This document shows positions 3,001-24,832 of a stretch of DNA of 25,741 bases, one piece after another. A program made the position numbers and the translations under genes. Below the pieces are notes generated by a model. It ran no database searches. It worked only from the letters and a program-made list of their open reading frames with translations, and was not told where the DNA came from. Each line of letters opens with the position of its first letter. Position 1 is the first letter of the stretch. The DNA is from Atractiella rhizophila (lineage: Eukaryota), in assembly GCA_021432655.1 (NCBI GenBank), contig MU271216.1, positions 124,001 through 149,741 of the forward strand, given 5' to 3'.

Positions 3001-3271
3001 CATCGTTTCGATATTCCTCCCATGGTCCAGGTCGAAGCAAATCTTTGTCCCGTAGGGGAATATAGGCATGCCATCCTTGCTCACCATAAGGAAACAAAAG
3101 TGGAAAACGAAGTGGAAGGTAGTTGGCGTTCTGATCACTGACTTTGTCGTAATAGCGCTGACCATCAGGACGCCTAAGTTTGACTATAATGTCTCTCGTA
3201 ATCCCTGCTGAGGCTCCTGATTCCCCTCCAATGAGTAGAACCACTATTTCTCCTATCCCATGTCCTGTTGG
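1..3271 (-). mobile_element. Helitron RepHel (HUH Rep endonuclease + Pif1-family helicase) pseudogene; lacks its N-terminus and runs off the left window edge
   Basis: Minus-strand fragments carry the three Rep motifs FTTFTCNPRWPEI, VIEFQKRGLPHAHILI (HUH) and KYLFKYIYKG, plus RDII...LRFPLLFPYGEQGW. Pif1 motifs: IDGPGGTGQT (Walker A, ~868-898), ASSGIAAILLEGGRTAHTRFRIP, IIRDEVGM, PFGGVIFVLGG/D, LTVNMR. Many frameshifts and stops. GT-AG introns at 1810-1857 and 499-543 rejoin conserved motifs when removed. Confidence 0.95.
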
Positions 3272-3285
3272 CTATGAATGCTCAC

Positions 3286-4842
3286 TTCCGCTGATATAAC
3301 ACCGTGTAATACCCTCTAAGGCAGCCCAATAACAGTCGAAGAACTGTCCCAGATCTTCAGGACGCGAAGCGGGGACGATACTCATGCGATGGAACACGAA
3401 GACGTCCGTGAAGATACGATGGTCTGGGATAGAGTGACCGATGGGGTCGTACTTTTTGTAATCAGCGTCTAAGCTAACATCATCCGACGAGTCAGGGATC
3501 CACTATCAGAGTAACACATAAAGGCAAGAAGGGAGAGGGCGACAAACAGTTCCGGTGTTCCCCAGTAGCTGAAATGCACGATGTTGTCTGCCTATCGCAC
3601 CTCTCACGTCAGTATTTAGCTTCTCGGGATAAAAATAGATAAAATATGGCACTTGAATTATGCTCTCCAAATAACTGGCCTTGAGCCTCACCTATCGCTC
3701 AAATCTGCACCTTCATACAAAGCATCAAACTGGGACACAGCTACCTTCAACAATTCCTTCCCTTTCTCGTGTATGACCTCCGCAAAGGTATAAACAAGTG
3801 TAACAAGCATAGCGATCGACTTCTCCGAAGGTCTCCAAATCGGGCTCATAGGAGCCCAAAGCGATCGCGAAGACGTGTTGAATCAACCTCCTCCTCGCCT
3901 CAGTCTTCATCTTACCATGAGCCCTCCAATCTCCTGTCTCATCTGACAACGGGATCGCAGGCAGGCTGAACTTTCCCAATAGCTCAGAATGTGGCGAATC
4001 TCCCGCTGCCTAAGCGAGATAAAACATAGTCAAGAGTTCCAAAAAAATCAGCCTCCTTCCTTCCCTCCTCCTCCTCCTTAGCCAAAGCGACTGCAGCCCG
4101 GCGTCGATCCTCGTACTCAGCCCAACTGGAAGGGGAAAAGCCTAAGGGGGAGTTGATGGCGGTGAGACGTTCAAGTTGGAGGTCGGGGAGAGCGAGAAGG
4201 TGGTCGGCCAAGGACCATGTCCTGGCTGCGAGCACAAGACGTGTGTTTAGGGAAGACAGGGAGAGGGAGGGAGAAGAGAGCAACTTTGAGAGCAACGAGA
4301 CAGATGGGGTAGGCCCTGTACCATAGCTGCCCTTGAGCAATGACACCGTGTCATCATTACATCCGGTTGCTCCTAGAGATAATTTCACTTTCGATCAAGA
4401 ACTCGAGACTGCCAGATGAGACTGAGACTTTGCTCTTGACGTCGTCTTTAGCTTCTTTTGGATGCGAACGTCTCGTGGCAAGTCTGCGGAGGAGCTGTAC
4501 TGCTTCTTGAGGAGAGACATATCTATGCTGTCCACCCAAAGCAAACGCTTTAGAGAGAAAGAAGGGAGATGACTTGCACGAACCCTTCTCGTCGCACTTC
4601 CCCTTTCAAGTAATAAATGCTTGAGACTTCGCATCTGCACACTCAATAATCAGCACTTTCACACAGTTGAACAACCTAAACTGAGTGTAAAGAGTTTACA
4701 CAGGCAAGGTCATGAAGTGCTGCAGACACACGTATGCTGTTCCCGCGAGGATGCAGGCATTGCATTTTGGGCTGATGGGCTTTCGAGCGCATGGCAGCTT
4801 TTGAGGTTGACAACTCTCGCAGGAGAATGTCCAGCGCTGCAT
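3286..4842 (-). pseudogene. Multi-exon pseudogene: N-terminal Zn(II)2Cys6 cluster, Ser-rich linker, then a kinase-like (possibly FunK1/fungal-type) region truncated by the Helitron junction
   Basis: ATG at 4842 gives MQRWTFSCESCQPQKLPCARKPISPKCNACILAGTAYVC, which is C-x2-C-x6-C-x8-C-x2-C-x8-C (4726-4821). Later exons read TCLYL/AEVIHEKGKELLKVAVSQFDALYEG and (3502-3286) WIPDSS...FHRMSIVPASRPEDLGQFFDCYWAALEGITRCYISG, ending at a GTGAGC donor. The Zn cluster is well supported; the kinase call is tentative. Confidence 0.55.
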
Positions 4843-7211: not shown

Positions 7212-7355
7212 TGGTCCCTGTGTAAGGATCTAAGGCTAGGAGTAGTTGGTGGTCAATAATGAGCACCAACACTCCTAGGCAAAACTAAACTACATAGTGA
7301 TGACTCATATGAGTCATAAGAGGCAGATGACCAAAACAACACACTACAACTAACA
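7212..7355 (-). repeat. Copia family A 3' LTR (~144 bp, TG...CA)
   Basis: 7244-7355 matches 13251-13366 with 4 substitutions and one 4-bp indel. It starts TGTTAG on minus, directly after the PPT. The left boundary is inferred from a TG following the TSD-like TCTAG. Confidence 0.85.
7300..7317. promoter_or_regulatory. Perfect 18-bp palindrome made of two tandem Gcn4/AP-1 consensus sites, in LTR A
   Basis: ATGACTCATATGAGTCAT. The other LTR copy keeps one ATGACTCAT (13311-13319). Function is inferred. Confidence 0.55.
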
Positions 7356-7364
7356 CTCCCACCT
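7356..7364 (-). other. Polypurine tract of Copia A
   Basis: Minus-strand AGGTGGGAG immediately before the LTR start TGTTAG. Confidence 0.75.
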
Positions 7365-7559
7365 GGGCAGCTGTCTCTTGTTGCTCCCACCAAATCCAGA
7401 GAATCTCCCACCAAATTCATACAATGTATACTCGATATAAAGCAGAAAGCATATTAGTTTTGCAATGAAAAGAAGATGAAAAGTCTTCGTACCGCTTAAA
7501 GCAGCGTCTTATAACCCCACAGAGGGGGAAAGGATTGTTTATTGCGCCCCATAACTGCC

Positions 7560-9239
7560 TCAGACACTTGGGTAGGGGCGCAAACCCATCATAACTCGAA
7601 ACTTGTCCACGCTGGCGACTGGAAGTGCCTTGGTGAGGAGGTCCGCTGGCATATCGACACCTGGACAGAAGACTGGACTGATCTTGCCCATCTCAACAAC
7701 ATCTCTGAGCCAATAAAAGCGAAGGTCCAGGTGTTTCATTCGACCATGGTGCTCAGGGTTCTTGGATACCTGGAGAGCACTGCTGCTATCTGTGAAGAGA
7801 GCTGTTGGACCTTGAGGAGCGAAGCCAATCTCTTCTAAAAGATTCCTTAGCCAGATGACTTCTTGGCCAGCTGAGACTCCTGAGACATATTCTGCTTCGG
7901 TTGTGGAAAGGGCAACGAGGGATTGTAGTTTGCTGCTCCAACTGACTGCTCCATTGCCCATCTTGAGGAGATAGCCTCCCGTAGAACGTCCAGTATCCTT
8001 GCACCCAGCAAAATCCGCATCGCAGAAGGCATGAAAAGGTTGGTTGAGGTTGGAACCAGTTGCAGAATACTCAATTCCTAAGTTCTGAGTGCCTTTGAGG
8101 TATTGTAGAAGATGCTTGGCTGCTTCCCAGTGCTTCTTTCCAGGATTAGAGAGGTACTTTCCAAGGACAGAGACTGCGTGAGCAATATCTGGACGAGTGG
8201 ACATGGCCAAGTACATCATGGAGCCAACAACGTTGCTGTAAGGGATTGTGCGCATTTCTTCTTGTTCTTCCTTTGTCTGAGGGCAGTCCTCCTCGCTGAG
8301 ACCGTGTCCAACGTTAAGAGGAGTGAGGACAGGGTTGCAGTCATCCATCTGTTGGCGTTCCAGAAGGTCCTTGACATACTGTTCTTGATCCAACCACATC
8401 ATTCTTCGCTTCCTATCCCTCCTAATGCGAACCCCAAGTAGGAATTCCGTTGGTCCAAGGTCTCTGAGCTTGAATCGCTTCCCTAACTCCCTCTTGAAGT
8501 TCTCCACAGCACCCTTGGATGTGCTAGCGATCGTAATATCATCCACAAAGACCGGGACAAGTACTTTGATGTCCCCCTTCGAGTAAATCCACAGACTAGA
8601 GTCGCTCTTGATCTTCTTAAATCCCATATCGACAAGTTCCTTATCGAGTTTCTTCTGCCATTGCTGTCCTCCTTGCCTTGTGCCATAGATGGCTTTGATT
8701 ACCTTGAGAACGTACTCTGGAGGACCCTGTGGATGACCTTCTGGTTGTTGTGCATAGACCTCTGCATCCATATCGCCGTTAAGGAATGCCGTAGAGATAT
8801 CCACTGACTCCAACTCCATGTCCAAGACACAAGCGAGCGAAAGAATCGTCCTAAGTGTCGCCCATTTGAACGTAGATGCAAAAGTATCAAAGTAGTCGAA
8901 TCCAGGGCGTTGAGAGAACCCCTTGATGACGAATCTGGCCTTGAAGCGCTCAATGGAACCATCCGACTTCTTCTTTACCGCAAACACCCATCGAGAACCA
9001 ACGATTTTTGCTCCTTTAGGCGGTTTGACCAGAATCCAACTCTTGTTGTCCAAGTGAGATTGAATCTCCTTCACTGTCGCTTCATGCCATTCCTTTGCAT
9101 TTGGGCTTGCCATCGCTCTTGAATATGACTGAGGGACCTCTACTCCTGTTGCTGCACTCATGGCATGCTCTGTGACAAGCATATAGCCGTATTCCATCGC
9201 CTCTGGCTCAGTGAGGATGTCATATTCCTTTACCAACAT
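7560..9239 (-). CDS. Copia A pol remnant: reverse transcriptase + RNase H (559 aa open; the frame extends upstream to ~9510 through a TGA at 9381-9383)
   Basis: SRWVFAVKKKSDGSIERFKARFVIKGFSQRPGFDYFDTFA, DISTAFLNG, KAIYGTRQ, VFVDD, YSNVVGSMMYLAMSTRPDI, CDADFAG...RSTGGY, ALSTTEAEY, KHLDLRFYWLRD, ADLLTKAL. Confidence 0.95.
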   Translation of the reverse strand: MLVKEYDILTEPEAMEYGYMLVTEHAMSAATGVEVPQSYSRAMASPNAKEWHEATVKEIQSHLDNKSWILVKPPKGAKIVGSRWVFAVKKKSDGSIERFKARFVIKGFSQRPGFDYFDTFASTFKWATLRTILSLACVLDMELESVDISTAFLNGDMDAEVYAQQPEGHPQGPPEYVLKVIKAIYGTRQGGQQWQKKLDKELVDMGFKKIKSDSSLWIYSKGDIKVLVPVFVDDITIASTSKGAVENFKRELGKRFKLRDLGPTEFLLGVRIRRDRKRRMMWLDQEQYVKDLLERQQMDDCNPVLTPLNVGHGLSEEDCPQTKEEQEEMRTIPYSNVVGSMMYLAMSTRPDIAHAVSVLGKYLSNPGKKHWEAAKHLLQYLKGTQNLGIEYSATGSNLNQPFHAFCDADFAGCKDTGRSTGGYLLKMGNGAVSWSSKLQSLVALSTTEAEYVSGVSAGQEVIWLRNLLEEIGFAPQGPTALFTDSSSALQVSKNPEHHGRMKHLDLRFYWLRDVVEMGKISPVFCPGVDMPADLLTKALPVASVDKFRVMMGLRPYPSV

Positions 9240-9501
9240 CCCAAGCTCGTCTGTTGACCCTTCGTCGTTGTTTTGAGGCGCTTCTGGGGTCCTAAATCTG
9301 TTGACAGGTCGTCCTCTACTCGTAGAATAAATTCTTGAAGGCCTGGTGACAGGGGGAGGTGTTGAAGCTGCTGGAGGAGGTCAATCTCGTGTTGTTGGGC
9401 GGATCTGGAGTGGATCTGGAGACTCTGAGAATCTAGGCATGTGAACTCCTGTCCAAGGATCTCTCTGCATGGTGTACTGACGAGGTGGTGTCCTAGGGCG
9501 T

Positions 9502-12500
9502 TCAGGAGAGGGAGCCGACTGCTTCCCTGTACCGACCGTTCCAGGATTTTGGTATGTGTGTTCCTTCGTTTCCGCCTTCCCCTTCATTCGTGGCTGGTTC
9601 TAACTTCCCTCCAAGCTCGAATGGCGTTGCGGCGGCGTTGCAGTTTTTCATTTCGAACTTCTCCAGCAGGCGCTCTGTGTAAGCTTGTTGATCGATGGAG
9701 ATTCCATCGTTAGACTGTGTGATGCGAATGCCTAAGAACTGGTGAGCTCTTCCTTCGTCCTTGAGTTTGTAGTGTTTCTGAAGCGCTTCCTTCACAGCTG
9801 CTGCTTCCTCATCATCCTCGGCCATGATGAGGATGTCGTCGACATATAGTCCTACGAGTGCGTACTTTCCTGTTTTCCCATCTCGTCTCATGTAGATTGT
9901 GGCTTCTGACATGCTTTGTGTGAATCCTAGACTTCTCAATTTTTCATCGGCATCCCCGTTCCATACCCGTCCACTCTGGTGCAAGCCGTAGACACCTCTC
10001 GTCGCTTTTATCACCCAATCAGGGTGTTCTGGGTCTTCCCAACCTGGAGGTGGTCGAAGATAGACCGGTTTCTCAAGTTTACCATAAAGGTATGCCGTTG
10101 ATACATCTACCATGTGTACTGGCCACTTATTCTTTGCCGCAATAGATAGGATAAGGCGAAATGAGGGCATGGAGAGGACTGGGGAGAATGTCTCGTCGTA
10201 ATCAACACCTTCGCGCTGTGTGTACCCTTGTGCAACTACCCTTGCACGATATCTGACAGTTTCTCCCCCTGGACATAGCTTTTCCCTCAGCACCCATCGT
10301 GACCCAATCACATTCTCCCCCTTTGGCAGCGGTACCATCTCTCCAACGTCCTTTTCCCTCCACGACTCCCTTTCCTCGTCAAAGGCAGCTTGCCATTCGT
10401 CGGCATTCGGACCAGCAACGGCCTCTTCGTATGTCGGAGTGAGGTTGCGAGGGGAGGAGGCGACTGTGATGCGAGCTACTGCATCTGATAAGGGTGAGTT
10501 GCCGAAGTACTTTGCTCTATTGTCTTTCTGAGCTTCTGCAGGTGTGCGCCGTGTGCGCTGTGGGCGTTCTGGAGGCGGCAGCGGTTCTGTTTTCGCTTTC
10601 GACGGCCCTTCGGTGGGTTTCTCCCCCTCATTCGGTTGTTCTCTTGTTACGACTGGAATTGACGTTGTTTCGGGAACAGGAGGGTCCACTGGTTCGCTCG
10701 TTTGGACTTCAATAGGCTGTAGGAGTGTTGCGGGGTACGTTTCGTCGAATTGAACGTGTAGGTGCTTCGTTACTGATCCGTTCTTGGGATTATAGATCCT
10801 ATACGTTTTGCTCTCCCAATCATAACCGACCAACCTGCCCTCCGTCGATCGCGCGTCGAGTTTCTGTCGGTTTGGCTCAGGAGGGATCAGACTGTGAGTC
10901 CTACATCCCAATACTCGCAAGTGATCCACTGACGGTTTCTTACCGGTCCAGGCCTCGTACGGCGTCTTTCCTTCAAGGGCAGAGGTTGGGCGCCGGTTGA
11001 TGATGTGGATGGCGGCCATGGCGAGCTCTCCCCACAACTTCTTGGGGAGGTCGGATGTGTGTAACGTGGAGCGGATGAGGGCGGCGATTGTGAGATTGAG
11101 GCGTTCGGCAACGCCGTTCTGCTGGGGTGCGTAGGCAGCTGTGTGCTCGTGTTTGATGCCGTGCGACTTGAGGTATGTCTTGAACTCATTGCTTGTATAT
11201 TCGCCGCCGTTGTCTGATCTTATCGTTTTGATCTTCAGGCCAGTTTCGAGTTCGACTTTCGCTTTGAATTCCTTGAACGCGGAGAAGACATCGGATTTGT
11301 ACTTCAGTAAGTAAATCCACTTTCTTCTTGTTGCGTCGTCTGTAAAGCTGAGCCAGTATTCAGCTCCTCCGAACGATTTGACGGGCGCAGGACCCCATAC
11401 GTCGGTGTGGATCAGTTCGAGCTTCTCTGCGCGTTCGGTGGGGCCGGAGGGGAATGGGAGTTTGCGTTGTTTACCAAGGAGGCATCCGGTGCACGGTGAG
11501 TGGTGATCCTCATCTCCTATCTCTAGTCCTCTGACCATTCCCTTTTCTTGCAACAGCTTGAGGCTCCCGCTTCCGATGTGACCTAAACGACAGTGCCAGA
11601 CATGCGAGGAGACGGCTTTCGAGGCGGCGGTGAGGTTTGTGCTTGCTTCCTTTCCTTTTGGGAAGATTACTGATGCATCTAATCTTCTCAGACCGCCTTC
11701 TGGCACAATCTCCGCCACCACCGTTCCATCTCTCCTTACCACCTTCCCTCGCCTGTCCGCGGAGAACACGACCTCGAATCCTTTCAAGTTGAGTTTGTCG
11801 GTGGAGAGAAGGGCGCAATCGATTTCGGGATCATAGAGTACGTCGTTTATGCTGATTTCCCTCTGGATCCCTTCGACTTTCGTTAACACTTTGACAGTTC
11901 CAATGCCAATTGCCTGTGTGACGATACCGTGAGACGAGCGGATTCGGCGCGTGTGGGGCTTAAGCGAGGAGAACCAGTCGGCGTAGGGGACGATGTGGTC
12001 CGTGGCAGCGGAATCTGCGTAGATTCCCTCACGGTGAGTTCCTTCCCCTGTCACTGTATGAAAAGCTTCTGAAACTTTTGCTTCTCCAGGTTTCTCTCCT
12101 CCTTCCCGCTTCTTCTTCCGACAATCCCTCTCCCAGTGCCCTTCGATGCCACAGTAGTGGCACTTTCCTTTCTTCTTTTCGGTTTTCGCCTTTCCACCAC
12201 TTGATTTGGTAAAGTTCCTTCCTCCTCCTCTTCCAGTTCGAGTAACTAATGCTTCGGAGGTAGATTTCGATTCCGGATTCCTACGGTCCGCTTCGAGCAG
12301 GAGACGGGAGGCGACATATGAGGATGTGAAGTCAGAGGTGGCGACGGCGTTGAAGGAGGAGACAACCTCGATCCATGATTGTGGGAGCGAGATGAGGAGG
12401 AGCATGGCGATATCGTCATCGTCAGTCTTGTCCCCCATTGCTTTCAACTCCTGTCCCATTGTTCTGATTCTGTTTACATGCTCCCGCATAGATTCTCCTT

Positions 12501-12924
12501 CGACATAACGCGCCGTGTAAAGCTTCTGGCGGAGCAGTACACGCGCTTGTCGGTCCTGGGTCTGGTACAGCTCCTTGAGCTTATCCCAGACCTCTTTCGG
12601 CTTCTCCACGTCGATGTCGCGGATGTCGGTAAGTACGTGATCCTTACATGCTTCGATAATGATCGAGTAGGCTAGGTACGCTCGCTTTGTCCAATCCCTC
12701 TGCGACGCTTCGATTGTGTCGACCCTCGCGACATTCTCCGGTTTCGCAGCCTCCGCTCCCTCGAGACTCGCCGGCTTGGGATCCGTTCCTGCAACGATCC
12801 CCCAGCAGTTCCTTCCGAGGAGCTTAGCCTGGACTCGAAAGTACCAGGTATGGTAATTCTCCCGCCCTTCGAGTTTCGCGATAGTCGATGCAGCAATGAA
12901 CGATGTGTCATTACCTTCAGACAT
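9502..12924 (-). CDS. Copia B gag-pol polyprotein (Gag, CCHC knuckle, protease, integrase, RT), truncated before RNase H
   Basis: Uninterrupted 1140 aa: KLEGRENYHTW (Gag N-terminus), CHYCGIEGHWERDC, YADSAATDH (protease), WHCRLGH...CTGC, IHTDVWGP / RSDNGGEY / QNGVAER (DDE integrase), KLDARS, RYRARVVAQGYTQREGVDYDETFSP, LYVDD. Ends at YREAVGSL. Confidence 0.96.
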   Translation of the reverse strand: MSEGNDTSFIAASTIAKLEGRENYHTWYFRVQAKLLGRNCWGIVAGTDPKPASLEGAEAAKPENVARVDTIEASQRDWTKRAYLAYSIIIEACKDHVLTDIRDIDVEKPKEVWDKLKELYQTQDRQARVLLRQKLYTARYVEGESMREHVNRIRTMGQELKAMGDKTDDDDIAMLLLISLPQSWIEVVSSFNAVATSDFTSSYVASRLLLEADRRNPESKSTSEALVTRTGRGGGRNFTKSSGGKAKTEKKKGKCHYCGIEGHWERDCRKKKREGGEKPGEAKVSEAFHTVTGEGTHREGIYADSAATDHIVPYADWFSSLKPHTRRIRSSHGIVTQAIGIGTVKVLTKVEGIQREISINDVLYDPEIDCALLSTDKLNLKGFEVVFSADRRGKVVRRDGTVVAEIVPEGGLRRLDASVIFPKGKEASTNLTAASKAVSSHVWHCRLGHIGSGSLKLLQEKGMVRGLEIGDEDHHSPCTGCLLGKQRKLPFPSGPTERAEKLELIHTDVWGPAPVKSFGGAEYWLSFTDDATRRKWIYLLKYKSDVFSAFKEFKAKVELETGLKIKTIRSDNGGEYTSNEFKTYLKSHGIKHEHTAAYAPQQNGVAERLNLTIAALIRSTLHTSDLPKKLWGELAMAAIHIINRRPTSALEGKTPYEAWTGKKPSVDHLRVLGCRTHSLIPPEPNRQKLDARSTEGRLVGYDWESKTYRIYNPKNGSVTKHLHVQFDETYPATLLQPIEVQTSEPVDPPVPETTSIPVVTREQPNEGEKPTEGPSKAKTEPLPPPERPQRTRRTPAEAQKDNRAKYFGNSPLSDAVARITVASSPRNLTPTYEEAVAGPNADEWQAAFDEERESWREKDVGEMVPLPKGENVIGSRWVLREKLCPGGETVRYRARVVAQGYTQREGVDYDETFSPVLSMPSFRLILSIAAKNKWPVHMVDVSTAYLYGKLEKPVYLRPPPGWEDPEHPDWVIKATRGVYGLHQSGRVWNGDADEKLRSLGFTQSMSEATIYMRRDGKTGKYALVGLYVDDILIMAEDDEEAAAVKEALQKHYKLKDEGRAHQFLGIRITQSNDGISIDQQAYTERLLEKFEMKNCNAAATPFELGGKLEPATNEGEGGNEGTHIPKSWNGRYREAVGSLS

Positions 12925-12969
12925 CCTGGGCTCGTGAAGCGACGGAGAACTTGGCTAGATATGAACGTA

Positions 12970-12982
12970 GCTCTCGCTACCA
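12970..12982 (-). other. Primer binding site of Copia B (probably initiator tRNA-Met)
   Basis: Minus-strand TGGTAGCGAGAGC, 2 nt after the LTR B end. TGGTAGC is complementary to the ...GCUACCA 3' end typical of initiator tRNA-Met. Confidence 0.8.
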
Positions 12983-12984
12983 AT

Positions 12985-13238
12985 TGACAAATGTGCGAGT
13001 GCTGCGAAGTGCGAGATAACAAATAAGTGTGTGTTGCATTTAGTATGTAAGGGAACTACATTACCTGCGAAGTGCAAGATAACAAATAAGTGTGAGTCTC
13101 GCACTTGCAGGTGAAAGGCTTTTATAGCTAAGATCCCTGTGGCAAAAGAGAAGTTGCCACAGTTCCAAAACACGCTCGACGAAAGTGGAAACGCGCAAGT
13201 GCGCAAGTGGCGAAAGGAGGAGGCGTACGATTTTGTCA
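12985..13238 (-). repeat. Copia family B 5' LTR (254 bp; partner LTR absent)
   Basis: Bounded by the 7-bp inverted termini TGACAAA...TTTGTCA, followed by PBS and gag ATG. TATAAAA on minus at ~13120-13126. Internal 30-bp repeat at 13002-13031 and 13065-13094. Confidence 0.82.
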
Positions 13239-13242
13239 ATAC

Positions 13243-13366
13243 CTACGAGCAGTTGGTGGTCAATAATGAGCACCAACACTCCTAGGCAGAACTAAACTAC
13301 AGACATAGAGATGACTCATAAGAGTCACAAGAGGCAGATGACCAAAACAACACACTACAACTAACA
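13243..13366 (-). repeat. Copia family A 5' LTR, missing about 25 bp of its U5 end where LTR B abuts
   Basis: Homologous to 7236-7355; ends CTAACA, followed by CCTAG. Confidence 0.88.
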
Positions 13367-13371
13367 CCTAG

Positions 13372-16300
13372 TAACTCTGATCTGTAGGTCTTCACTTCTC
13401 ATTCACCAATTTGTTTTGATGGTATCAAGCATTAATTTGTCTGTACTCTCATATGTATGGAACAATCTGTTAACTCTCCAAATGTTCACTTCATTGGGTC
13501 GGAAAGGGACATCGTTGGAAGGATTTGCCAGAGGAAGTAAGGTCACCACTCAAGCAAGAACTTCTCTTTGCACCCTCAGACTACGTGAAAAGCCTAACCC
13601 CGCCACCATCATTGACGCTCCAACAACTCTATGACCTGCCTCTGCCTCCCAGATCTGGTACCCAGCTCATCTACCAGCCACTCCCCCAAACTTTATCCCT
13701 GCAAGCCACAACTATATGCACAACAATTTCTTCCTCCATATCCTACCAACAATGGGACCTGGTGGGAGAATTTGTAGCAAGAAGCTCTGCAGTCATGTCT
13801 GGATGGAGCGATGTCTATCAGCATACCTGGATCTCCTCTATGCTTCCTAGTCTGGATGCTTGATATCTGGCGGCGATGGCAGTACTCAGCCGGTTATTTC
13901 CAAGTTTGCGATAAGTTCAGGAATATCACGCAATGGAGGGATACACAACTAGATCAGCGGCAGAGGGAAGTGCTTGACAAGATACTTCTATCACCAGCTT
14001 GAAATGAGACTGGTTGGCCTTCAAGATAAGTGATCATCCATTTGATGCCTTTCAACTTTGTAGGACTCTAGCATAAGAGTGGTATTCAGATGCCAATCTT
14101 GACTTTCTGCTTGAAGCCTTCTCCAGGGCATTTCTTCATACCAATCCTGCTATGGCTGCCTTTTCTATTGCTTCTTGTTCTCTTTGGACCCATATCTTTG
14201 ACTCTTATCGTTTTGGCCGGGGATTTTATCAGTCACTTTCAGACCATTATGGCAATCTATTGACAAGCGTGTACATTGTTATCATTCCCAGTTAATCAAC
14301 AATTGTAATCTGCATTGGATCCATTGCAGTATCAATTCACCACACTATTTTTTATAGAAATTCAATGGGTATTAATCCTTCAGATAGATACGTTAAAGAT
14401 TCTGTTCAAGCTATACAGTTCAGTTTCTACCTTTTACCTTTATAGCTAATTTTAATGCTCTGGTTATTTCTCGCCAATCTCTTCAAAATACTTATTCTTG
14501 TGGACCATTTGTCATGAATTCAATTTTACCTTTTCTCCCCCAACAACTTTCCAATAATTCAAGAGCAAGAACGGAACATGTGGCGTTTGCAACTTACTCG
14601 TATGCTGTTGCACTTCACTGGACCTGTAAGTGATTCCTGCAGTCGTTTGCAAAATAATTTTGATGGAGTAGAGATCAAATGAAGAAAATTATCCAGATTG
14701 AAAGAAGTAAGTGGCTACTCAACTGTCATGCCTATGACATCACACAAGGTCCCCCGCACTTCATGTTCCACCCGGATTACATTGAAGTGACTCCTCCCAT
14801 GAATGTTGACCACCAGTCTTTTCACTTTGCCTTCTGCCTAGTCCTCCGCACGATTCTTTCAGTATGTTACTTGCGGCTTGCCTTCAAGGCTAGGTTGACG
14901 ATTCAGCCATTTTCGATGATGTAGATGAAGAGGGGACAGTTTTATCAGATGAAAACCAACACATCTTGCTACTGGCATCAACTCCAGAAGGTCATACCAC
15001 TCCACCTTTACAAAATGCTTACAACTTGCTCCAGCTTTCTTCTTCTGTTCAATTGGCATTGCTAAAAAAGAACAAGGCTCTGACAGTAGAAAAGGTGATA
15101 TCAACTCCCCCAAAATCAGTCCGGAACTCCATCTCAGCAGAAAACAACATGTTGCCAGTGAAGAAGTGCTCTGACTTTCGAGGTTTTCAAGAAAGGATAT
15201 GGAATCTTGATCCTGAGGCAACGTCTACGAATGAAGGTGGAGGAATATGCTGCAGTTGCTGCAATCGTGTCGTTATCGTCCAAAAGATTGGGGCCACAGC
15301 ACAATTCTGACAGCATCGTACAAAGAAGCTTTGTACTGAAGGTCCAAAGTCCCTCGAGAGATGAGATGGTGCTTAGGATAATACTCGAATACATTCCTTC
15401 TTTTCTCAGCTTCACTCCATGGCTGATAAGTCCACAAATGTAGTTTCAAAAAGCAGAATGTTCTGACCCCTGTCCTGGTCTGGCATCAAAGGACATCCCA
15501 CAATTGACAACTTACCTGAACGGAACAAGTGTTGTGAGTGGCGGTAATCCATCGATCACAAAGCTTTCTCAAGCCTTGTTTAGAAAAAAGTACAGCGATC
15601 TCACGAACTCGCAATAAAACCGAATCAAAGTTCGCGCAACACAACTGTTCCCATGGCACAACTTCCATGATCTACAAATTGTCTATGCAGCTGCCTGTAG
15701 CAAAGTAATGACGAGATTCTTGTCCAAGGGAGAACCTTTACCACGGGTAGCCTGCTTCAAGATCCAATGGGATCCAATCTTCCTCCATCAAGTATCAGTC
15801 AAGCTTCCCAAGTGTGAAAAGCGCAAGTTTACGCAGAAAGTCTACTGTAGCAACAAGCTGAACAAGATCTATTGCTACCATGCCGATCTTGAGGAGATGC
15901 TTTCTATCCATCTTGTTTTTATGTTAAAAGCAAAGCTGATGAAAATTCAGGATCCCACTGATCCCTTCCTTACAATGGCTCGTCGTGCATCAAAAGGCCA
16001 CTTCCAAGATAGAAAGCTGTTCATTGGTTTAATCAAAGTGATGCTCCTTAAAGAAGACCAAGAACATAGCGGGAAACAGCTCAAAGGAGCCATGAAATAC
16101 AGCGCAGAGTTCGATCAGTTCTGTCATCTTCTAGTTGTCAGCTCCCCCCCATGCATATTGGATCATCAGACATAGTTTCGCTGGACGTCATGAAAGAAGC
16201 TTTAGGTATATTTGAGCTTCAAGTCTATCAAATATTAAGCAAGGGTTAGAGCTATACGTGCAAAAGACGAACGTTTCCAGCTAGGAATCATGGAGCAGAA

Positions 16301-19050
16301 CTTCAAGATGGTGAGACAACATTTGAAGAAGCTGGACTACAACAGTCCCCTGGGAGTCTCTGTGGATGACACCGAGTGCCATCCTGACATATGACCATGG
16401 AGTGATGTTGTGGGAAAGAAGGGGGTCAGGTATTTCGTTGGAGGAGTTGGAGAGCCAAAGGAATTTATGGCGGCGACCCTTGAGCAGGTGCTCAAAGAGG
16501 CCCATGATGGAGGGTTGGCAACCAAGGTCTTTACTGGATCCCTCTCCAAGTAGTTCTGATGGTTCACTACTATAGACTCATCTCTACCCGCTTAATATAC
16601 CCCTTCCGGATATCCCACCCATCTTTCTTGCGTTTCTGCCAATCTCATCGAAAACCACTTCCACCGCTCTTACAAGTCTTCAAACCAAACTTTTTGAATT
16701 CATTGCCAAGTATCGTTTTCGTGTAATCTCATACTGCTCGGATGGAACAGAATATGAGTGTCAAGCGCAGCACAGATTCCATTCTTTGTACCCACCTGCT
16801 CGATTCAGCATCTCGGCACCGTTCATTCCAGGGCCACAGAAAGAACTCACATTCGAGGCTACACATCATGATGCTGAAGGAATACTCCCCCGCTGTCAAG
16901 CTTCAGAACCCCAAACATGCCACCAAAACTGCCTGCAATAACTGTATGACAGGCATTTCACATTCTCGCATTAGGAGACCAGCTCCACGACATTGCCTTT
17001 TCAGACGTTAACCAAGGGCCGTTGCTACATCAGGATGTTGAAAGAAGCGACCGTCAAGATGATCATGCAGCTACTCAAGTTTTCTCTGCTCCTCTTCTAG
17101 AACACCTGGTACAAACCCACTCTGAAGGGTTAGGCCTCATTGTTTATACCTTCATCCATGGACAACTGCGAGATGCATGGGAGAACCGGTGCTTACTGTT
17201 GGTCAAGCGTATTGAAATGGTGCTAAGAGGAAAGTTCTTGCTTGCCGGTTGGAAGCACTTTGTGGACCGTCATCATCTTTACTCCGTCTCCTGCCAGTTT
17301 ATCTCTCGTGAGCCTATGACATTATCAACATTGAAGCTGATAGCTTGGTCATGCTCATCTTTATCTATCGCCAATTCTTTCCAGATTATCCTCTTCTCCC
17401 ATGGCGACTGACAACCGAAACGAACGAGCGTGTTTTCACTGGAATGCGCATGATTGTCGAGACATTTGGCGCTGTTGATGCCCTCCTCATGATTCCGAAG
17501 CTTTGAGTTCTGCTGGCGGGTGCCTTTCACAATTTGTTGACCAAAGATAATGCTGCCACAGGAGCTGCTGGCTACCATCACACTTATGTCAATTCAAAAG
17601 ATAAGATATTGACCTTGCTGCCCGTGCTCAATATCCTACCAATGTTGAACTTGAGAGGTGCACTAAAGCTGCCTACAAAGGCGCACAGTCCCTTCTAAGA
17701 GCAGTTGGAATGGTTGTTCTTCCAGGCACCAATGAGCGTAGAGTGGGGCAGCTTCAGATTATCTTCGTGATGCGGAAATGGATATTGATTGCCAGGATGA
17801 GACTGATTACGGAGAAGATTAATAGCCAGCAGGAAGTCATGTGCAGGCACAATTGGAATTGAAAGAGGTGTTACTCTGAGCAGAGGATTATCTATTGGTG
17901 CGTGAGAGGTATCAAGATCAGGATCAAAGCAAAACAGTCTAGCCCTCTCGCTTGGTGCAGTATCCAGTCTTGTTACCCAAGAGAATTTAATGTACGTACT
18001 CCCTTATGGCTACTTGAGAGACATTCTGATAAACGTATATAGCAATGATCTTACACCAGAGTCTGACGAAGACCTTCAACCTTCAACATTTGTGCAAAAC
18101 GATAAAGCAACACTTATGAGCAGCAATGCATTCAGACTGTATATGCCTCCCTCTCAAGTTTCTCAAGGATGTTAATGGCTAAGTCAGGCTAATGCAGCTA
18201 TGGCAACCATATCCTTCACAACCTTCCTTGGAAAATCAGGATGCACTCGATCTTAATCGTCTCGTCAGCTTGCGAAGGAAACATCAGTCACCAGAGATGC
18301 TCAAAGCTGTCCGAGTTGTCGTACCAAAATGTCCTTCCTCAGCCAAATTGTTCCAGCATACTGAAATCCATATCTTCATGTCAATGGAATCCTTGCTGCT
18401 CGCTTGGCCGCCATTCTGCCACAGCCAGAGGCAATGTTTTAAGACCGAACTCAAACAGTCTCTTCAGGACTTGACAGGTCTGTTTGATGGGGAGGGAAAG
18501 GTACCGGAAAAGTTGATGTTGTGACTTGTAATCAAGCTCCGGTTTCAAGCAGGGTAAGTTCGTTTCGAAATAACTGGCCACAATGAGGCATACTGATTTG
18601 GAGTGTAGCTGTCCCTCTGAGCAAAATCTTTCCAGAGCCTCCCCGACACGTTGAGGAAAGGACTAAGCTATGGCAACGTTACAGCCGATTATCCTTTGTG
18701 CTCAGGTTCTCTTGTCCTCTTCTATTTCTAAGTCGATCGTGCATTTCACACCGGAGAAGGTTCATCTTCTTGTTATTCTCTGACAGAGGTCTGAAATCTA
18801 GGTATCTAGTTATCACAATGTACATGTGGGTGCCCAAAACTACCGATGCCATGGTACTTTCCTACGTCGTTGTCAGGGTCTTTTCCCCCTCAGTGCAGAG
18901 CTTGGAATTTTCTGCACCAAATCACCACCATCCTTTCACTCCTCTTTTCTCCACATTCCCGCTGCACAGGTCATCAGTTCTTTGGACCACTTTGGTGTTC
19001 CACCTTTCCGCCAGGACAAGCTGATGGGCGGGCAAGACTCATTGGAACAG
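13372..19050 (+). mobile_element. Heavily decayed large gene: Ulp1/C48 peptidase, zinc finger and P-element/THAP9-like DDE transposase (putative DNA transposon)
   Basis: Transposase-like motifs in order: LGVSVDDT (DDT at 16365-16373), VISYCSDGTE (SD at 16738-16743), QNPKHATKTACNN (16904-16942, matching DxxHxxKxxRN with D>N and R>C), DVERSDRQDDHAATQVFS (~17049), PLLPWRLTTETNERVFTGMR (17400-17450). Zinc finger ICCSCC...F*QHRTKKLC (~15245-15335). Many stops, frameshifts and probable introns. Ends approximate; no TIRs found. Confidence 0.68.
14060..14530 (+). pseudogene. Ulp1/SENP-like (C48) cysteine peptidase domain within the large decayed gene
   Basis: EWYSDANLDFLL (14077-), NLHWIHC (His at 14313), FYRNSMG (14359; the usual DS position), LQNTYSCGPFVMN (Gln 14484, Cys 14499). 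Order and spacing fit the C48 His-Asp-Cys triad with its oxyanion Gln. Confidence 0.75.
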
Positions 19051-19242
19051 GATTAACTCGACGTCGGCACTTTGAAGGTTTTATGTCCACCCTTTGTTCT
19101 ATTGCTAACTTTCTTTGCTGAAAAATTACTCACCAATAGCAGTGATATTGCCCTGATATCAAAACGACCACCACGGAAAAAATCTGTCCACCTAACTCCA
19201 CCAAAACACCACCAGTAATCCCCACAATTCCACCCAACCCAG

Positions 19243-20811
19243 ATGCCCACCCCTCCAGGCTCTCAGAGGGAAAGAGAAGAGCCCGTGTCACCATCCCCTG
19301 TAAGGAACGTTGAAGTAGATTCTACTTCAATGTGGGACCCGCTGCTAAAGGTCCCTGGCTATGCTCCCAACACTGCTCTAGCTCCCCAAACTCCGAAAGC
19401 CAACAGATTCCTTGACGTGTTCATACCCAATACTTGGGACCAGGATGACCCGACCAAAGTCCTCTAACTCCTACGAGATTTCCTAGACGAACACCCGAAG
19501 GCTCAAACGAAATCAAAACTCTATGACATTCAAAAATCAAGAGTTCAACTTCCTCGACAGCTTGGTGGAACACCTAGGTTACCTCCTGAGCTCCCCAGAG
19601 GCAAATCCAACCACAAGATCGGTAGGCCTTGAGGTCAAGAAGGGTGTCGAAACCCTGAAGGGCCAAATCGTGGACCTCAAAGATGTGATGCATGCTCTAT
19701 CACAAGCGGTCAATCCTGCCACTCTGGGAGCGAAGACGGCGGAAAGTATGGCCAGCCACCTGTCAAGGCTACATGGAGGACCAAACGCTAAGCACTTCCC
19801 CCCTCTCTCTCTCCTCGCTCTGCACCCCATCCTCCTATACCGCCTACCAAAAACCTCACTAACGACTCGCTACAGCTTACTTTGACCTGGAAAGCCCCGG
19901 AGATATTGCAGGCAGACTCCCCATCGACAAACTACTTGAAGAAGAAGCCATACCTGAGTGTACCCCTCATAAAAGAGAAGCCTCAGAAACTAGTCATGAT
20001 ATTCAATGGCCTGTTCATGGCCAAGTGCATTCCCAGCGAGGTCTATCAAAAGACCCCCGGAGCCGAAAGAGCTGCCAGCAAGATGTCCCCATTCCTGAGG
20101 ATACGAGCTGCCCAACGACTCAAAAGCAGAGACCTCAGGCTCCATCTCTACCACGCTTCCAAAGTACAACTGGCGATCGACACCCAAGAGGTGTGGCTTC
20201 CACACCTTGAAAGTGGCTGGTCCATCAAGCGCAAATCCTTTCCAATTATCGTCCACGCCGTCCCCACCTCATTCGACATCAACTCTAAGGAAGAGGTTCA
20301 AAGACGTATCGAACCTTTCAACCTCAACCTATGCGAACACATCGCCAAAATAAGCTGGTGCCGCACCAAGAAGATGTCTTCTACGCCCTCGGAAAAGGTC
20401 AAAACCCACTCCTCCCTCATCATCGCCCTCGACCTCGCCTTAGTAGCCGACGCGCTCATCGAATTCGGTCTCATCATTGACGGGAAAGCGTACACGGTGG
20501 AAAAGTCCATCCGAGATGTCCTAAGATGTTTTAAGTGTCAAAAACCTGGTCACACCGTCGCGAGATGCAAAGCTCCAGTTTCCTGCGGGGTTTGCGCCGG
20601 CCCCTACTTCACGACGACCTGCACCCTCTCCTGCGCAAATCTCAAACCCTGCCGTGATGCGCATTTCTGTTCCCATAGACCAATCAAGTGCAGTTTATGT
20701 TTTGCTACTGATCACAATGCCCTCTCCAAAGGTATGGAGTGTGAGGTCATTAATGCCGCAAGACTTTCGCACAGAATCCAGGAGGGCTCTTCCCGATTCT
20801 TTGCGAAATGA
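19243..20811 (+). pseudogene. LINE ORF1 (Gag-like nucleic-acid-binding protein), frameshifted
   Basis: Fragments 19243-19467, 19523-19885 and 19882-20811. FPIIVHAVPTSFD, KTHSSLIIAL, CFKCQKPGHTVARC, CGVCAGPYFTTTC, CSLCFATDHNALSKGMEC. Confidence 0.88.
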
Positions 20812-23800
20812 GCGGAGACCTACCACCCTTACCAGAGGATCTCCTTAATCAGCTAAGTTATTCTGCTTCACCTTCAGTTTCCATTTCTTCACCCCCTTCC
20901 TTTTCATCTCCTTCTCTCCCCGCTTCCCCCATCGCAGGCTCCCGGACTGCTCAGGTCACTCCTTATCAAAACCCATTTCTCACTTCTTCTGTCACCAAGT
21001 CTCCTAACACTGACGAACCACAATATGGGAACAGCTACTCCGACGACACGAGCGAAGCTTCTTACCCAAAACCTTCATCATCTTCTCTCCTTTGAGTCTA
21101 CCAATACAACACCCAAAAGTCTTTATCTGCATTTCATTCACTCCTTTCAGACGCTCACTCCAATTTCGATCTTCTGCTAATCCAAGAACCATACATCGCA
21201 CCGGGGAACTCCCTGCCTTTTTCCATCAGATGGCGCCGTTCTTCTACCTCCTTGTCTGCGCGGTCAGTTATTCTCGTGAACGCCAACACGATTTCTGGAT
21301 CCAGTATCCACCCGTAGCATCTCCGTCTCCTGAAATCTCTGCGGTCAAGATCCACTTCCCACCATTTACCTTTATTTTTGTTAATGTTTACAATGCCGCC
21401 CACCTAATGTCTGAGACATTAAACGCTTTAATTTTGTTCATTCAACAACTCAGAAGGGAATACGCTTCTATCGAAAACTTTCTGCTTTATGTCGGAGGAG
21501 ACTTCAACCTACACCACGATCTCTGGAACCAGGAAGGCTACTTTAGACGAGACCCTAAGGCGGATGACTTACTAGAAAGGTTAACGGAAGAAGGACTGGA
21601 ACTTAGGTCAGAACAAGGCATCATCACTTGGGCAACAAGGGAGTCTCAAACGGTCATCGACTTGGTGTTCTTGAACACTGAAGCCAAAGACCTAGTAGAG
21701 CGATGTATAACCTCCCATGATCCCTCGATGAACCATGGTTCTGACCATTTCCCCATCCTGACCACTTTTAACCTCAACAAGCAAGCTCCGTCAATGCTGC
21801 GCAGATTCAACCTCTCTAAGGCTGACTGGGAGAAGATGGCGGAAGAAGTAGAAATGAATTAGGAAAGTACCCCTTTAACACAGAGATTCCTCTGAGGGAT
21901 AGGGAGGACATTGACCTAGCAATTGAACACCTCACCAAATCGATCCAAAAAGTGCTAGAAGTGTCGACATCAACGGTGAAGGTGTCGAAGTTTTCCAAAA
22001 GATGGTGGGATGAGGAACTCTCAGAGCTCCATGCTTGGGCTGGGAAGTGATGAAACAGGTTCCAAAAAACGAAAGATGGACGGGACTATGATTTGTGGCA
22101 AAGTTCCCTCCGTCATTTTCGAAGTGCAGTCCAAGCGCGAAAGCATTCGCACTGGAACAATTTTCTCCCATGCCTAGATGAGAAGTCCTTATGGACCGCT
22201 TCAGCATATGCCAAGCATGAAGAATGAGAGCGACAAATTCCAGCGCTTAAGAATCCAGACAACACCTTTACCATTGATAACCAAGAGAAAGCGAGGATCT
22301 TCCACGACACCTTCAGTGCTATGCACCCCAACCCTCTACTCGAAGATCTAGAATATGTTCAAGAGACACCAGAGGACCACATTATCTTTGGCGATATCGA
22401 AATCCAAGAGCTAGACAGATATATCGAAAACGCAAAAGCAAAGTCAGCTTCTGGTGACGACGGAATCTCAAATATGGTGCTCAAGGAACTTTGGCCTACT
22501 ATCAGGGAAGTCCTATTCCACATTATCTCCTCTTCATATTCAATCAACTACTACATACAAAAGTGGAAGAGCTTTACAACGGCAATATTAAGAAAGCCAA
22601 AAAAGCCAGATTATACGGTTCCTAAAGCCTACCGCCCAATAGCCCTTCTAAAATGCCTCGCTAAAGTATTTGATGGGGTTCTAGCATCGAAATTGGCTTT
22701 TTTTACCGAGAAACACGAGCTTCTTCCTCCGCAACACTTTGGGGGCAGAGCTGGAAGGAGCAGCACCGATGCCCTGTTAACAGTGGTTGAATTCGTAATG
22801 GATGGCTGGCGGAAAGGGGAAGTGACAGCTGCCACCTTCTTAGACGTTAAAGGAGCTTTCCTGTCAGTCATCCATCCCCGCCTTGTCTCCAATCTTCTCA
22901 AAGCCAAGGTTGACCCTCTCTTCTGTGGCATGATCGAAACCTGGCTGGAGGGACGATCAACATCCTACTCTTTCGACGGGTTCAGTTCGAACCAGCTCAA
23001 AATCAAGATTGGGCTAGTACAGGGGTCTCCCTTATCCCCCATTCTCTTTCTACAATGCCCGGGGGTTGATTTAAAGGCACCCAGCATAAGCTGTTGGGCT
23101 AAGTGGTGGAGGACCTCCAATCTGCGGACGATGGCTGTTCGGATATGTGGTTGATGCCACACTATGGCAGCATAGTCAGTGGCGGTACAGACGATAGAGA
23201 TGTATAGGCGACGGAATTGGGCCAGTGGGATGCCTTCAGTCGTTTTCACCAGTGATGCAATTGCCATGAGGCGCTTGCGTCCTTTTTCTTCTATTGAAGC
23301 GAGCTGCTGTTTCCATCGAAGCTCCTTGTCTAGGACTATCCCAAGGAGTGTTGCGCCGTCTGACATCTTTATCTTCTCGCCACCAAATCGAAGTCTAGGA
23401 TTTTATATTATCTTTTTGTGATTTCGAGTGAACAGAACAAACTTTGTTTTGTCTCTTTCGAACAGTGCTCCATGTTCTTCTCCCCATCCCTCCGCCTTGT
23501 CAAGGATACTTTCCAGATCCCGGATGGCCAGGGCCACTGACGACAATCTGGTCATGAAAGATACGTCGTCAATGAAGCCGGCTGAAAGGGAGTTATGTTG
23601 GACAGCTAGCCTAAGTAAGGATCCCTGGCCTCACCTTTGATACTAACCTTCCAGACCCAGTTGTCCGCCTGGATAAGATTATTTTTCGTGGCGCAATGCG
23701 CCTCCTCACCCTTCCAGACTCCAATCCGGCTAGTGTGCTGGCACACACATGTAGGCTGGCCTTTGTTACCAAATTTCCTTCCCCTTTATACAAAGTTTTT

Positions 23801-24832
23801 CACCAAGGCGCCCTTTCTTTCCCCTCAGACCTAGAAATCCTCCACCCTCTCCCTCTTCCTCCCAATTTCTTACCCTCTTTCACCACCATCATACCCGAAT
23901 CCAAAGAGTCAGCACTGGATGCTTACAACACAATCGCCAACAACAAACCCGACCTCCACATCTTCACGGATGGATCTAGTACTGAGGACGGGGTAGGGGT
24001 GGCTGCAATTGATCTGTCATCAGAGTGGTCTTCAGTAGTCAGAATTGGCGACCCCAACCAGAACTCAATCTTCGAAGCCGAGCTAACTGGAGTAAGGCGA
24101 GCATTGGGTCGCCTGGCACATCTGGAAGAAGTTCCACCAAATGTGGTGATATTCTCTGATAGCCAGAGCGTCATCAAAACTCTGGAGAGGCGGCCCAGCC
24201 ACAGACCTGGACAACATATCGTACTAGACATACACTCAAAGCTAAGTCTCATCACTGATCTTCTTCCACGCATAAGAATCCATCTTCAATGGGTTCCAGG
24301 ACATCAGGAGATCAAGGGCAACAAAGCAGCAGATTCCCTGGCACGCAAAACGACAAAGAGAAAGGACGCCGCTCCACCCTCCCCATTCCCGTTCAGCCCA
24401 TCCTCCTTTGCATAAACCATCCATGGATACTCCCCTCCTCAAAACGAACCATCTGGCAACGTGGGGAAGCACCACACCAAAGCAAGAGGAAAGCTACCTT
24501 CGGCCAAGACTTACGCTATGCTTGCTGAGCTCCCAAGACCAGTGGCTTCAATCGTGGTTCAACTCAGATCAGGTCACATAGGACTCGGGGATTATATATA
24601 TCGCAAGAAAGTGCAGGAGTCTCCCCTCTGTGAGTTCTGTCACTCCCGCGAAACGGTAAAACACTATCTGCAATCAGCAGGAGGCACAGGCTCCACCGAG
24701 ATAAGCTTAAGAAGAAGTTAGCGAAAGTCGGAATCTGTCTCACAAGCAATGCTTCGGTTCTCTCTAACCCGGACGCGTTACCACCTCTGGAAATTCATCA
24801 GAGCCACTCGAAGGTTCACCCATCACACGTGA
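20808..24832 (+). pseudogene. LINE ORF2 (Ser/Pro-rich leader, APE endonuclease, RT, RNase H, CCHC), disrupted by stops, frameshifts and an inversion
   Basis: APE: VYQYNTQKS, FDLLLIQEPY, GDFNLHH, VIDL, GSDHFPI. RT: KPKKPDYTVPKAYRPIALL, FLDVKGAF, GLVQGSPLSPILF, and FIDD inside the inverted block. RNase H: IFTDGS, EAEL, FSDSQS, WVPGH. C-terminus: QLRSGH, CEFCHSRETVKHYL, FIRATRRF then TGA at 24830-24832. Confidence 0.93.
23061..23620 (-). other. 560-bp internal inversion of the LINE RT core and thumb
   Basis: The minus strand reads PLLRLAVQHNSLSAGFIDDVSF...TLLGIVLDKELRWKQQ...LMLGAFKSTP. Re-inverting restores YNA-P-LL at the left join and STP-IPGLTFDTNLP at the right join. Confidence 0.9.

Follow-up and report, generated by a model that had tools for sequence, protein, structure and literature searches.

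The stretch of DNA considered here (the window) comprises 25,741 nucleotides of Atractiella rhizophila (assembly GCA_021432655.1, contig MU271216.1, positions 124,001 to 149,741 of the forward strand); unless a locus or a protein is named, coordinates count from its first letter. The window is a transposon graveyard in which the interval between 13.4 and 19.1 kb, flanked on the 5′ side by a Copia retrotransposon and on the 3′ side by an element resembling a long interspersed nuclear element (LINE), holds the P-like remnant that is the subject of this article. With a probability that we set at about 0.88, what remains in this interval is a dead copy, nearly complete in length, of the only gene of a cut-and-paste DNA transposon, an autonomous element from a large family of basidiomycetes. 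In relatives that are intact, about seven short introns interrupt this gene, and its predicted product of 1,600–2,000 amino acids opens with a conserved N-terminal domain, which is followed, in this order, by a C48 peptidase, a disordered linker, two Cys/His clusters, a helix-turn-helix (HTH), a split D-D-E core and a C-terminal tail.

Extent, parts and decay of the window copy

The remnant was delimited with a profile hidden Markov model (HMM) built from 28 full-length relatives (1773 positions), the coding damage being mapped by frameshift-tolerant alignment. The HMM matches are colinear on the plus strand from 13492 (profile position 19) to 18922 (position 1702), with a best E value of 1.2e-38, and the same profile yielded nothing significant elsewhere in the window; tblastn searches with the relatives are likewise colinear across 13492–18922. 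In the frameshift-tolerant alignment the recognisable coding remnant spans 13495–18984 of the plus strand, i.e., profile positions 20–1724 of 1773, and the end of the frame is projected near 19130. The parts that can be distinguished are as follows.

13495..13873, plus strand: remnant of the N-terminal domain; profile 20–144, 40/121 residues identical; HMM match 13492–13710, E 4.4e-5; one frameshift, one stop
14053..14582, plus strand: remnant of the Ulp1/SENP-like C48 peptidase; profile 206–385; four frameshifts, one stop
15170..15307, plus strand: weak remnant of the first Cys/His cluster; profile 579–625; HMM E 0.22, colinear with its neighbours
15462..16206, plus strand: second Cys cluster (PCPGL...) and HTH region; profile 673–907, 86/234 identical; HMM E 9.1e-12 and 1e-25; three frameshifts
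16207..16247, plus strand: gap at profile position 907, where intact relatives have a short, conserved intron
16248..16529, plus strand: first part of the RNase H-like core; profile 907–998, 35/91 identical; HMM E 2.5e-12; stop at 16392
16530..16581, plus strand: gap at profile position 998, coinciding with a second conserved intron position
16582..17712, plus strand: rest of the RNase H-like core and helical insertion domain; profile 1000–1373, 163/367 identical; HMM E 1.2e-16 to 1.2e-38; four frameshifts, two stops
18106..18984, plus strand: scattered, weak remnants of the C-terminal tail; profile 1468–1724; HMM match 18228–18329, E 8.8e-5; six more frameshifts

The short motifs by which the two enzymatic parts can be recognised lie within these boundaries.

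14080–14091, plus strand: WYSD motif
14313–14318, plus strand: HW motif
14359–14364, plus strand: NS motif (YRNSMG)
14484–14504, plus strand: QNTYSCG motif
about 15250–15290 and 15468–15760, plus strand: Cys-rich stretches
16362–16373, plus strand: VDDT motif with the first catalytic Asp (family form CDDTKL)
16738–16746, plus strand: SDG motif with the second Asp
16904–16942, plus strand: QNPKHATKTACNN, a degraded form of D..KH..K..RN
17049–17063, plus strand: DRQDD motif
17411–17449, plus strand: TTETNERVFTGMR
17426–17428, plus strand: codon of the catalytic Glu in the motif ExxFxxxR

The N-terminal remnant opens with WVGKGHRW, to be compared with the family consensus WIGxGxxYP, and the HTH remnant occupies approximately 16070–16206, ahead of the catalytic core. 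The protease remnant, a weak part of the match, nevertheless exceeds what chance would give, with an alignment score of 52 in the frameshift-tolerant comparison of 14053–14582, as against 29.7 ± 3.6 (maximum 39) for 30 shuffled queries. The two gaps within the core region find their counterpart in the exon structure of the relatives: at profile position 907, gaps of 23–53 nucleotides separate successive matches in the loci L010, L015 and L018, and profile positions 998–1460 constitute one uninterrupted exon in L010, L014, L015, L018, L002 and L003. Since the relatives have a single open frame in this latter region, the breaks found there in the window copy represent damage rather than splicing.

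At least 12 frameshifts and five in-frame stops were counted within the well-aligned parts of the remnant, no open frame on the plus strand exceeds 185 amino acids and the motifs are scattered over all three frames. Pfam searches with 22 raw fragments of open reading frames from the window produced nothing useful and, in particular, no match to PF02902 (Peptidase_C48), and a word-based protein search with the fragment 15618–16175 found no match. Two DNA sequencing runs from a single sample contain the stretch, no RNA run containing it being listed. The codons of both core Asp residues and of the core Glu are retained, and in the D..KH..K..RN motif Asn and Cys stand in the place of the Asp and the Arg; in the protease the codons of the His (in HW, 14313–14318), the Gln (14484–14486) and the Cys (14499–14501) are retained and the position of the catalytic Asp reads Asn (14359–14361). 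The window copy is incapable of transposition and is an ordinary dead insertion. As to the nature of the decay, the observed/expected CpG ratio is 0.51 in the P-like remnant (13440–19135), 0.60 in a Helitron-like remnant of the same window (1–3300) and 0.84 in the Copia element, TpG/CpA being in excess and TpA not enriched in the first two; this pattern fits a long methylation-type decay and looks more like the loss of methylated CpG than like the repeat-induced point mutation of ascomycetes.

A preliminary description of this interval, made from the letters of the window, had listed a series of motifs, all of which are present on the plus strand at the places it assigned to them, and had taken the element for a decayed copy of which only scraps appear as open reading frames, as the damage just described bears out. 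The limits it had proposed, 13372–19050, enclose the coding remnant; 13372 is the first sequence past the Copia long terminal repeat (LTR; 13243–13367), and the projected end of the frame lies slightly beyond 19050.

Structure of the transposase core and of the protease in relatives

The affinities of the core were examined on an AlphaFold (AF2) model of a natural 722-residue fragment, P0003, computed with 40 aligned relatives (mean predicted local distance difference test score, pLDDT, 81.2; predicted template modelling score, pTM, 0.76). With Foldseek the best matches of this core are two structures of the P element transposase (6pe2_A, 3e-11, and 6p5a_A, 7e-11), the next being RAG1 at 3.7e-4. 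VIA-align comparison with structure representatives gave a Z score of 26.5 for 6p5a_A, with 389 of 442 residues superposed at a root mean square deviation (rmsd) of 4.5 over model residues 121–584, the runners-up being Transib (Z 9.8), a RAG-like structure (9.7) and Hermes (9.4). Thus, as judged from the model, the family's core adopts an RNase H fold that is structurally closest, by a wide margin, to the transposase of the Drosophila P element. The hAT superfamily was considered and rejected, there being no hAT Pfam match and a Z score of 9.4 for Hermes compared with 26.5 for P.

In the P element transposase, according to PMC7776569, an HTH precedes an RNase H domain that is interrupted, between strand 5 and helix 4, by an insertion that is all-helical and binds GTP, the catalytic residues of the enzyme being D230, D303 and E531. 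In the P0003 model the conserved acidic residues occupy the positions that such a fold requires, D219/D220 lying within a strand, D326 behind a strand and E553 in the helix next after a helical insert; this all-helical insertion (residues 404–536) stands between the last strand and the helix bearing the Glu and is covered by the alignment with 6p5a_A, which begins at residue 139 of that chain. The motifs CDDTKL, DGTxVE, QDSKHxxKTxRN, DRQDD and ExxFxxxR are invariant or nearly so within the family, the ten best named clusters of the ESM Atlas all carry TNP-like/THAP9 families (top score 0.97), and the Pfam model of the P-type HTH (PF12017) scores just above its cut-off in two relatives, P0002 (23.1 bits) and P0024 (25.9 bits).

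The N-terminal half was modelled on the 968-residue relative P0073 (pLDDT 71), the model being confident at 121–552 and 695–963 and disordered between these segments. Its protease matches the Ulp1/SENP fold with a Foldseek value of 1.3e-9, and structural alignments over 178–205 residues (rmsd 2.6–3.2) gave Z scores of 19.8 for SENP3, 19.6 for SENP5 and 18.6 for Ulp1; NEDP1 also scores 18.1, the top matches being SUMO proteases. Across the relatives (alignments A2 and A3) the HW, D and Q.D..SCG signatures are invariant or nearly so, and on the model the peptidase of the relatives is a C48 enzyme of the papain-like clan CE fold, with a His-Asp-Cys triad and an oxyanion Gln. Between the protease and the HTH the relatives possess two Cys/His clusters, the first having the form [C/H]x2C...Hx3-5C (alignments A2/A3, P0073); neither these clusters nor the N-terminal ~200 residues gave a clear fold match, having been tried only within the 968-residue P0073 model.

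Relatives, mobility and genomic setting

The closest named relative of the window copy is a partial protein of A. rhizophila itself, 69% identical to the fragment 16950–17411; the same fragment is 45% identical to a 1588-residue protein of Lenzites betulinus that has a Peptidase_C48 domain at its start (E 1.5e-7) and a borderline Tnp_P_element HTH at residues 667–710 (23.1 bits, cut-off 23). An exhaustive phmmer search with the first 1200 residues of the latter protein retrieved 2094 cluster representatives at E ≤ 1e-3, of which 1307 remain at E ≤ 1e-10 and 503 at E ≤ 1e-30, many of these relatives being 1,600–2,000 residues long and matching from the protease through the core. The named members, found in many Mycena species and in Cytidiella, are labelled “hypothetical protein” or “Ubiquitin-like protease family”, and PF02902 is carried by all 28 that were found. 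A Pfam analysis of 28 long relatives detected PF02902 in 19 at E ≤ 0.01 and in 17 above the cut-off, as well as in P0002. One family protein, P0033, ends with a fragment of methionyl-tRNA synthetase (residues 1874–1945; PF09334, E 2.5e-11) and is probably a chimeric gene model.

Protease and transposase core occur together in 90 of 177 family proteins, a further 65, mostly short fragments, having the core only; among proteins of at least 1400 residues both parts are found in 85 of 92. The core is present in 79 of 80 metagenome loci, of which 47 are too short upstream for a judgement and 22 have an in-register protease upstream. In L010 a single stop-free frame (7442–8941) extends from the C-terminal half of the protease across the linker to the Cys clusters.

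Evidence of mobility comes from metagenome contigs, where nine complete relatives of 5636–7720 bp, bounded by terminal inverted repeats (TIRs) beginning AGGACCCC, were identified, first by scanning every locus and then by an inspection guided by the terminal octamer. In seven of the nine (L010, L014, L018, L023, L029, L031 and L050) these repeats are flanked by perfect duplications of the target site (TSDs) of 8 bp, all different, and the homology between L023 and L031, 78% identical over ~6 kb, ends exactly at the TIRs. The octamer occurs 374–578 bp upstream of the frame in seven of the ten loci with sufficient room and its complement 216–467 bp downstream in 13 of 16, the two sequences having only 21 and 30 occurrences across 425 kb. 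The element L050:6503–12138 is internally deleted, having lost profile positions 863–1073 with the region of the first catalytic Asp while keeping the AGGACCCC repeats and a perfect 8-bp TSD, and is likely a non-autonomous derivative.

Two structural peculiarities were observed among these loci. L031 contains, at 1984–3195, about 1.2 kb of sequence that is extra with respect to L023 and lies within the 5′ region of the element, and in L080:835–5268 a family fragment is found inside a large palindrome with perfect 51-bp arms, L058 matching L080 in both orientations, which suggests a head-to-head duplication.

Within the window, the neighbours of the P-like remnant are the following.

488–3271, minus strand: Helitron-like remnant with a PIF1-type helicase fragment (E 2.7e-43) and Helitron_like_N (E 1.2e-15), its frames broken
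7236..13367, minus strand: Copia-type LTR retrotransposon with gag, integrase and RVT_2 Pfam domains
7236–7356 and 13243–13367: LTR copies of the Copia element, about 125 bp each, 92–95% identical
19792..24415, plus strand: LINE-like retroelement (Pfam CCHC, Exo_endo_phos_2, RVT_1, RNase_H), bounding the remnant on its 3′ side

The outer LTR end of the Copia element lies ~70–130 bp ahead of the start of the reading frame of the P-like remnant, a distance to be compared with the ~375–580 bp that precede the frame in relatives, so that the Copia element probably sits inside the 5′ region of the P-like element or, alternatively, the 5′ end of the latter has been lost. A 5-bp duplication around the Copia element, checked by eye, agrees in three of five bases only and is unconvincing as a sign that this insertion split the 5′ end. 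The Copia element itself presents two separate RVT_2 matches on the minus strand, one at the end of a 1150-residue frame (9502–12954) and the other in the next frame (7560–9380), which points to an internal duplication, or else to an element that is nested or recombined. The LINE-like element carries, spread across four frames, a CCHC-type ORF1, an apurinic (AP)-type endonuclease, RVT_1 and an RNase H domain.

Alternative explanations and significance of the family

Several results weigh against the interpretation given at the outset. In the 30 relatives examined with Pfam the match to the P-type HTH is borderline and confined to two, the THAP domain (PF05485) has no match in any and the TNP-like RNase H N, GBD and C models (PF21787–PF21789) have none at E ≤ 0.01; in addition, the sequence profile of the core found no match in the PDB. 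The assignment to the P superfamily is therefore founded on the fold, the order of the motifs, the length of the TSD and the features of a language model rather than on direct sequence significance. Two long proteins are altogether devoid of C48, and no C48 was detectable in 10 of the 32 metagenome loci whose upstream DNA is long enough for a judgement; one of these ten (L002/L003) is 93% identical to the protease-bearing L004 from the core onwards and looks 5′-truncated in this sequence comparison, and the upstream open reading frames of eight loci lacking a detectable C48 contain no informative Pfam domain, one match being below the cut-off. The elements L012:569–7155 and L009:1703–8272, bounded by perfect terminal repeats of 28 and 34 bp, respectively, have unlike 8-bp flanks, possibly as a result of recombination between copies, of chimeric assembly or of flank decay. 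Finally, the window copy yielded neither TIR nor terminal octamer nor TSD: the inverted repeats between 12800 and 19800 are short pairs at chance level, the comparison of both Copia flanks with 18850–19850 gave matches of 7–13 nucleotides only, and the octamer, with up to one or two mismatches allowed, is not at the places expected. That the window copy is itself a transposed element is accordingly a matter of its homology to the relatives.

None of the conditions that, according to the preliminary description, would have refuted its reading was borne out by the results. Its attribution of the core to a P-like transposase agrees with the RNase H fold and with the distance, in Z score, between the P element and the next structure, and the departure it had noted from the usual P-element architecture with a THAP domain agrees with the Pfam result for PF05485. 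The possibility it had raised that the Ulp1 and transposase parts would not recur together in other copies is countered by the 85 of 92 long proteins and the 22 of 32 metagenome loci in which they do. As for the TIRs and the 7–8-bp TSDs that it had suggested looking for, they exist in relatives, with a TSD length of 8 bp, and were not found for the window copy.

The same description had also envisaged that another superfamily or a host gene might account better for the locus. Because KDZ (Kyakuja/Dileera/Zisupton) elements are abundant in Basidiomycota, as stated in PMC5751038, and because these and Plavaka-type transposons are likewise large, with cysteine clusters upstream of an RNase H-like core just as the present family has Cys clusters ahead of its own, a transposon of the KDZ or Plavaka type deserved consideration; however, no match to the KDZ transposase, CxC or, the P-type HTH apart, any other transposase Pfam model was obtained in the 30 relatives (E ≤ 0.01 for KDZ and CxC), the fold is P-like (no solved KDZ structure being among the matches compared) and the ten best named ESM Atlas clusters are TNP-like without exception, so that this attribution appears highly improbable. 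Of the pseudogene of a domesticated host gene, namely an Ulp-like protease with a co-opted transposase domain, the public labels of the relatives and the lack of recognisable ends in the window copy are what one would expect, but hundreds of cluster representatives matching at E ≤ 1e-30, relatives provided with TIRs and TSDs, the internally deleted derivative L050 and the position of the window copy among Helitron, Copia and LINE remnants leave it the faintest of chances.

It could also be maintained that the family is a separate lineage of superfamily rank, better classed alone, that has only an ancient plan (HTH, split RNase H, 8-bp stagger) in common with P/THAP9. Structural alignments only 14–16% identical, the lack of any match in sequence with the P transposase or with the TNP-like RNase H/GBD models of Pfam, the undetected THAP domain, a different domain set and a protein twice as long speak in this sense; on the other hand, the structural match extends over 389 of 442 residues, insertion domain included, and lies 17 Z units above hAT, Transib and RAG1, and the order of the motifs, D..D..D(2)H..K..RN..E..F...R, as well as the 8-bp TSD agree with P. 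We regard such a separate rank as improbable. The evidence supports a P-superfamily-like lineage whose DNA-binding front end is different and into which a SUMO-type protease is built.

Compared with the known members of the P superfamily (Drosophila P, vertebrate THAP9 and the zebrafish P-like elements), the family has in common, as far as the model allows one to judge, the fold made of HTH, RNase H and helical insert and the same order of motifs, together with an intron-bearing gene, short TIRs and the 8-bp TSD that P elements produce (PMC7776569 for the TSD/TIR comparison). It differs from them in having two other Cys/His clusters where THAP would stand, in the addition of an N-terminal domain, an Ulp1-type protease and a long C-terminal tail (hence the 1,600–2,000 residues), in its fungal hosts, in TIRs beginning AGGACCCC and in the lack of a Pfam TNP-like sequence match. 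Fungal P elements are rare according to PMC5751038, in which a survey with Pfam P models found 11 and the Repbase entries are only from Pucciniales and Allomyces; these entries may belong to the same or to a sister lineage, the closest named relative of the window copy being from Atractiella (Pucciniomycotina). Unlike the 11 elements of that survey, the present family has hundreds of clusters, which the Pfam P models missed.

Ulp1/C48 domains have been described from Ginger1 and Mutator-like elements (PMC2836005) and from Cryptons of oomycetes (PMC3212892), and in these cases also a SENP/Ulp1-type peptidase, its catalytic set intact, is encoded by the element and often fused to the enzyme of transposition. 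The transposase superfamily is a different one, and the protease of Ginger1 stands C-terminal to the transposase, whereas in the family described here it is N-terminal to the DNA-binding and catalytic parts. In the literature, Repbase not being covered, no paper was found that joins an Ulp1/C48 domain with a P/THAP9-type transposase, nor was any found that describes an Ulp1/C48 fusion with KDZ/Zisupton.

A mechanism for the intact elements can be proposed in which the Cys clusters and the HTH would bind the element ends, and the D-D-E site would cut these ends and join them, in the fashion of the P element, to target DNA cut with an 8-bp stagger. The protease may remove SUMO or a related modifier from the transposase or from factors of chromatin silencing or repair, thereby favouring transposition, a role that we only infer; the preliminary description had likewise supposed that it might counter SUMO-dependent silencing. 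A bolder proposal, to which we accord appreciably less than an even chance, is that the family constitutes the main, hitherto unrecognised basidiomycete form of P/THAP9, abundant and apparently intact in some genomes, in which other zinc clusters would have taken the place of THAP and an acquired Ulp1-type protease, its catalysis intact, would be obligatory for transposition, either stripping SUMO from silencing or repair factors or processing the transposase at the disordered linker. If this were true, P-type elements would be common in fungi rather than near-absent, and many fungal annotations as “ubiquitin-like protease” would designate transposases.

Recognition of the family would correct both transposon and gene annotation in many basidiomycete genomes, since the Pfam P models miss it and the public records describe its members as hypothetical or protease-like. 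The family is also a further independent instance of a DNA transposon having recruited a SUMO-type protease, one whose catalytic set is conserved. The article on Ginger1 (PMC2836005) raised the question of what such enzymes contribute to a transposon, and those relatives that seem intact and of recent insertion, their TIRs and TSDs being perfect, may offer the material with which transposon-borne proteases can be put to the test.

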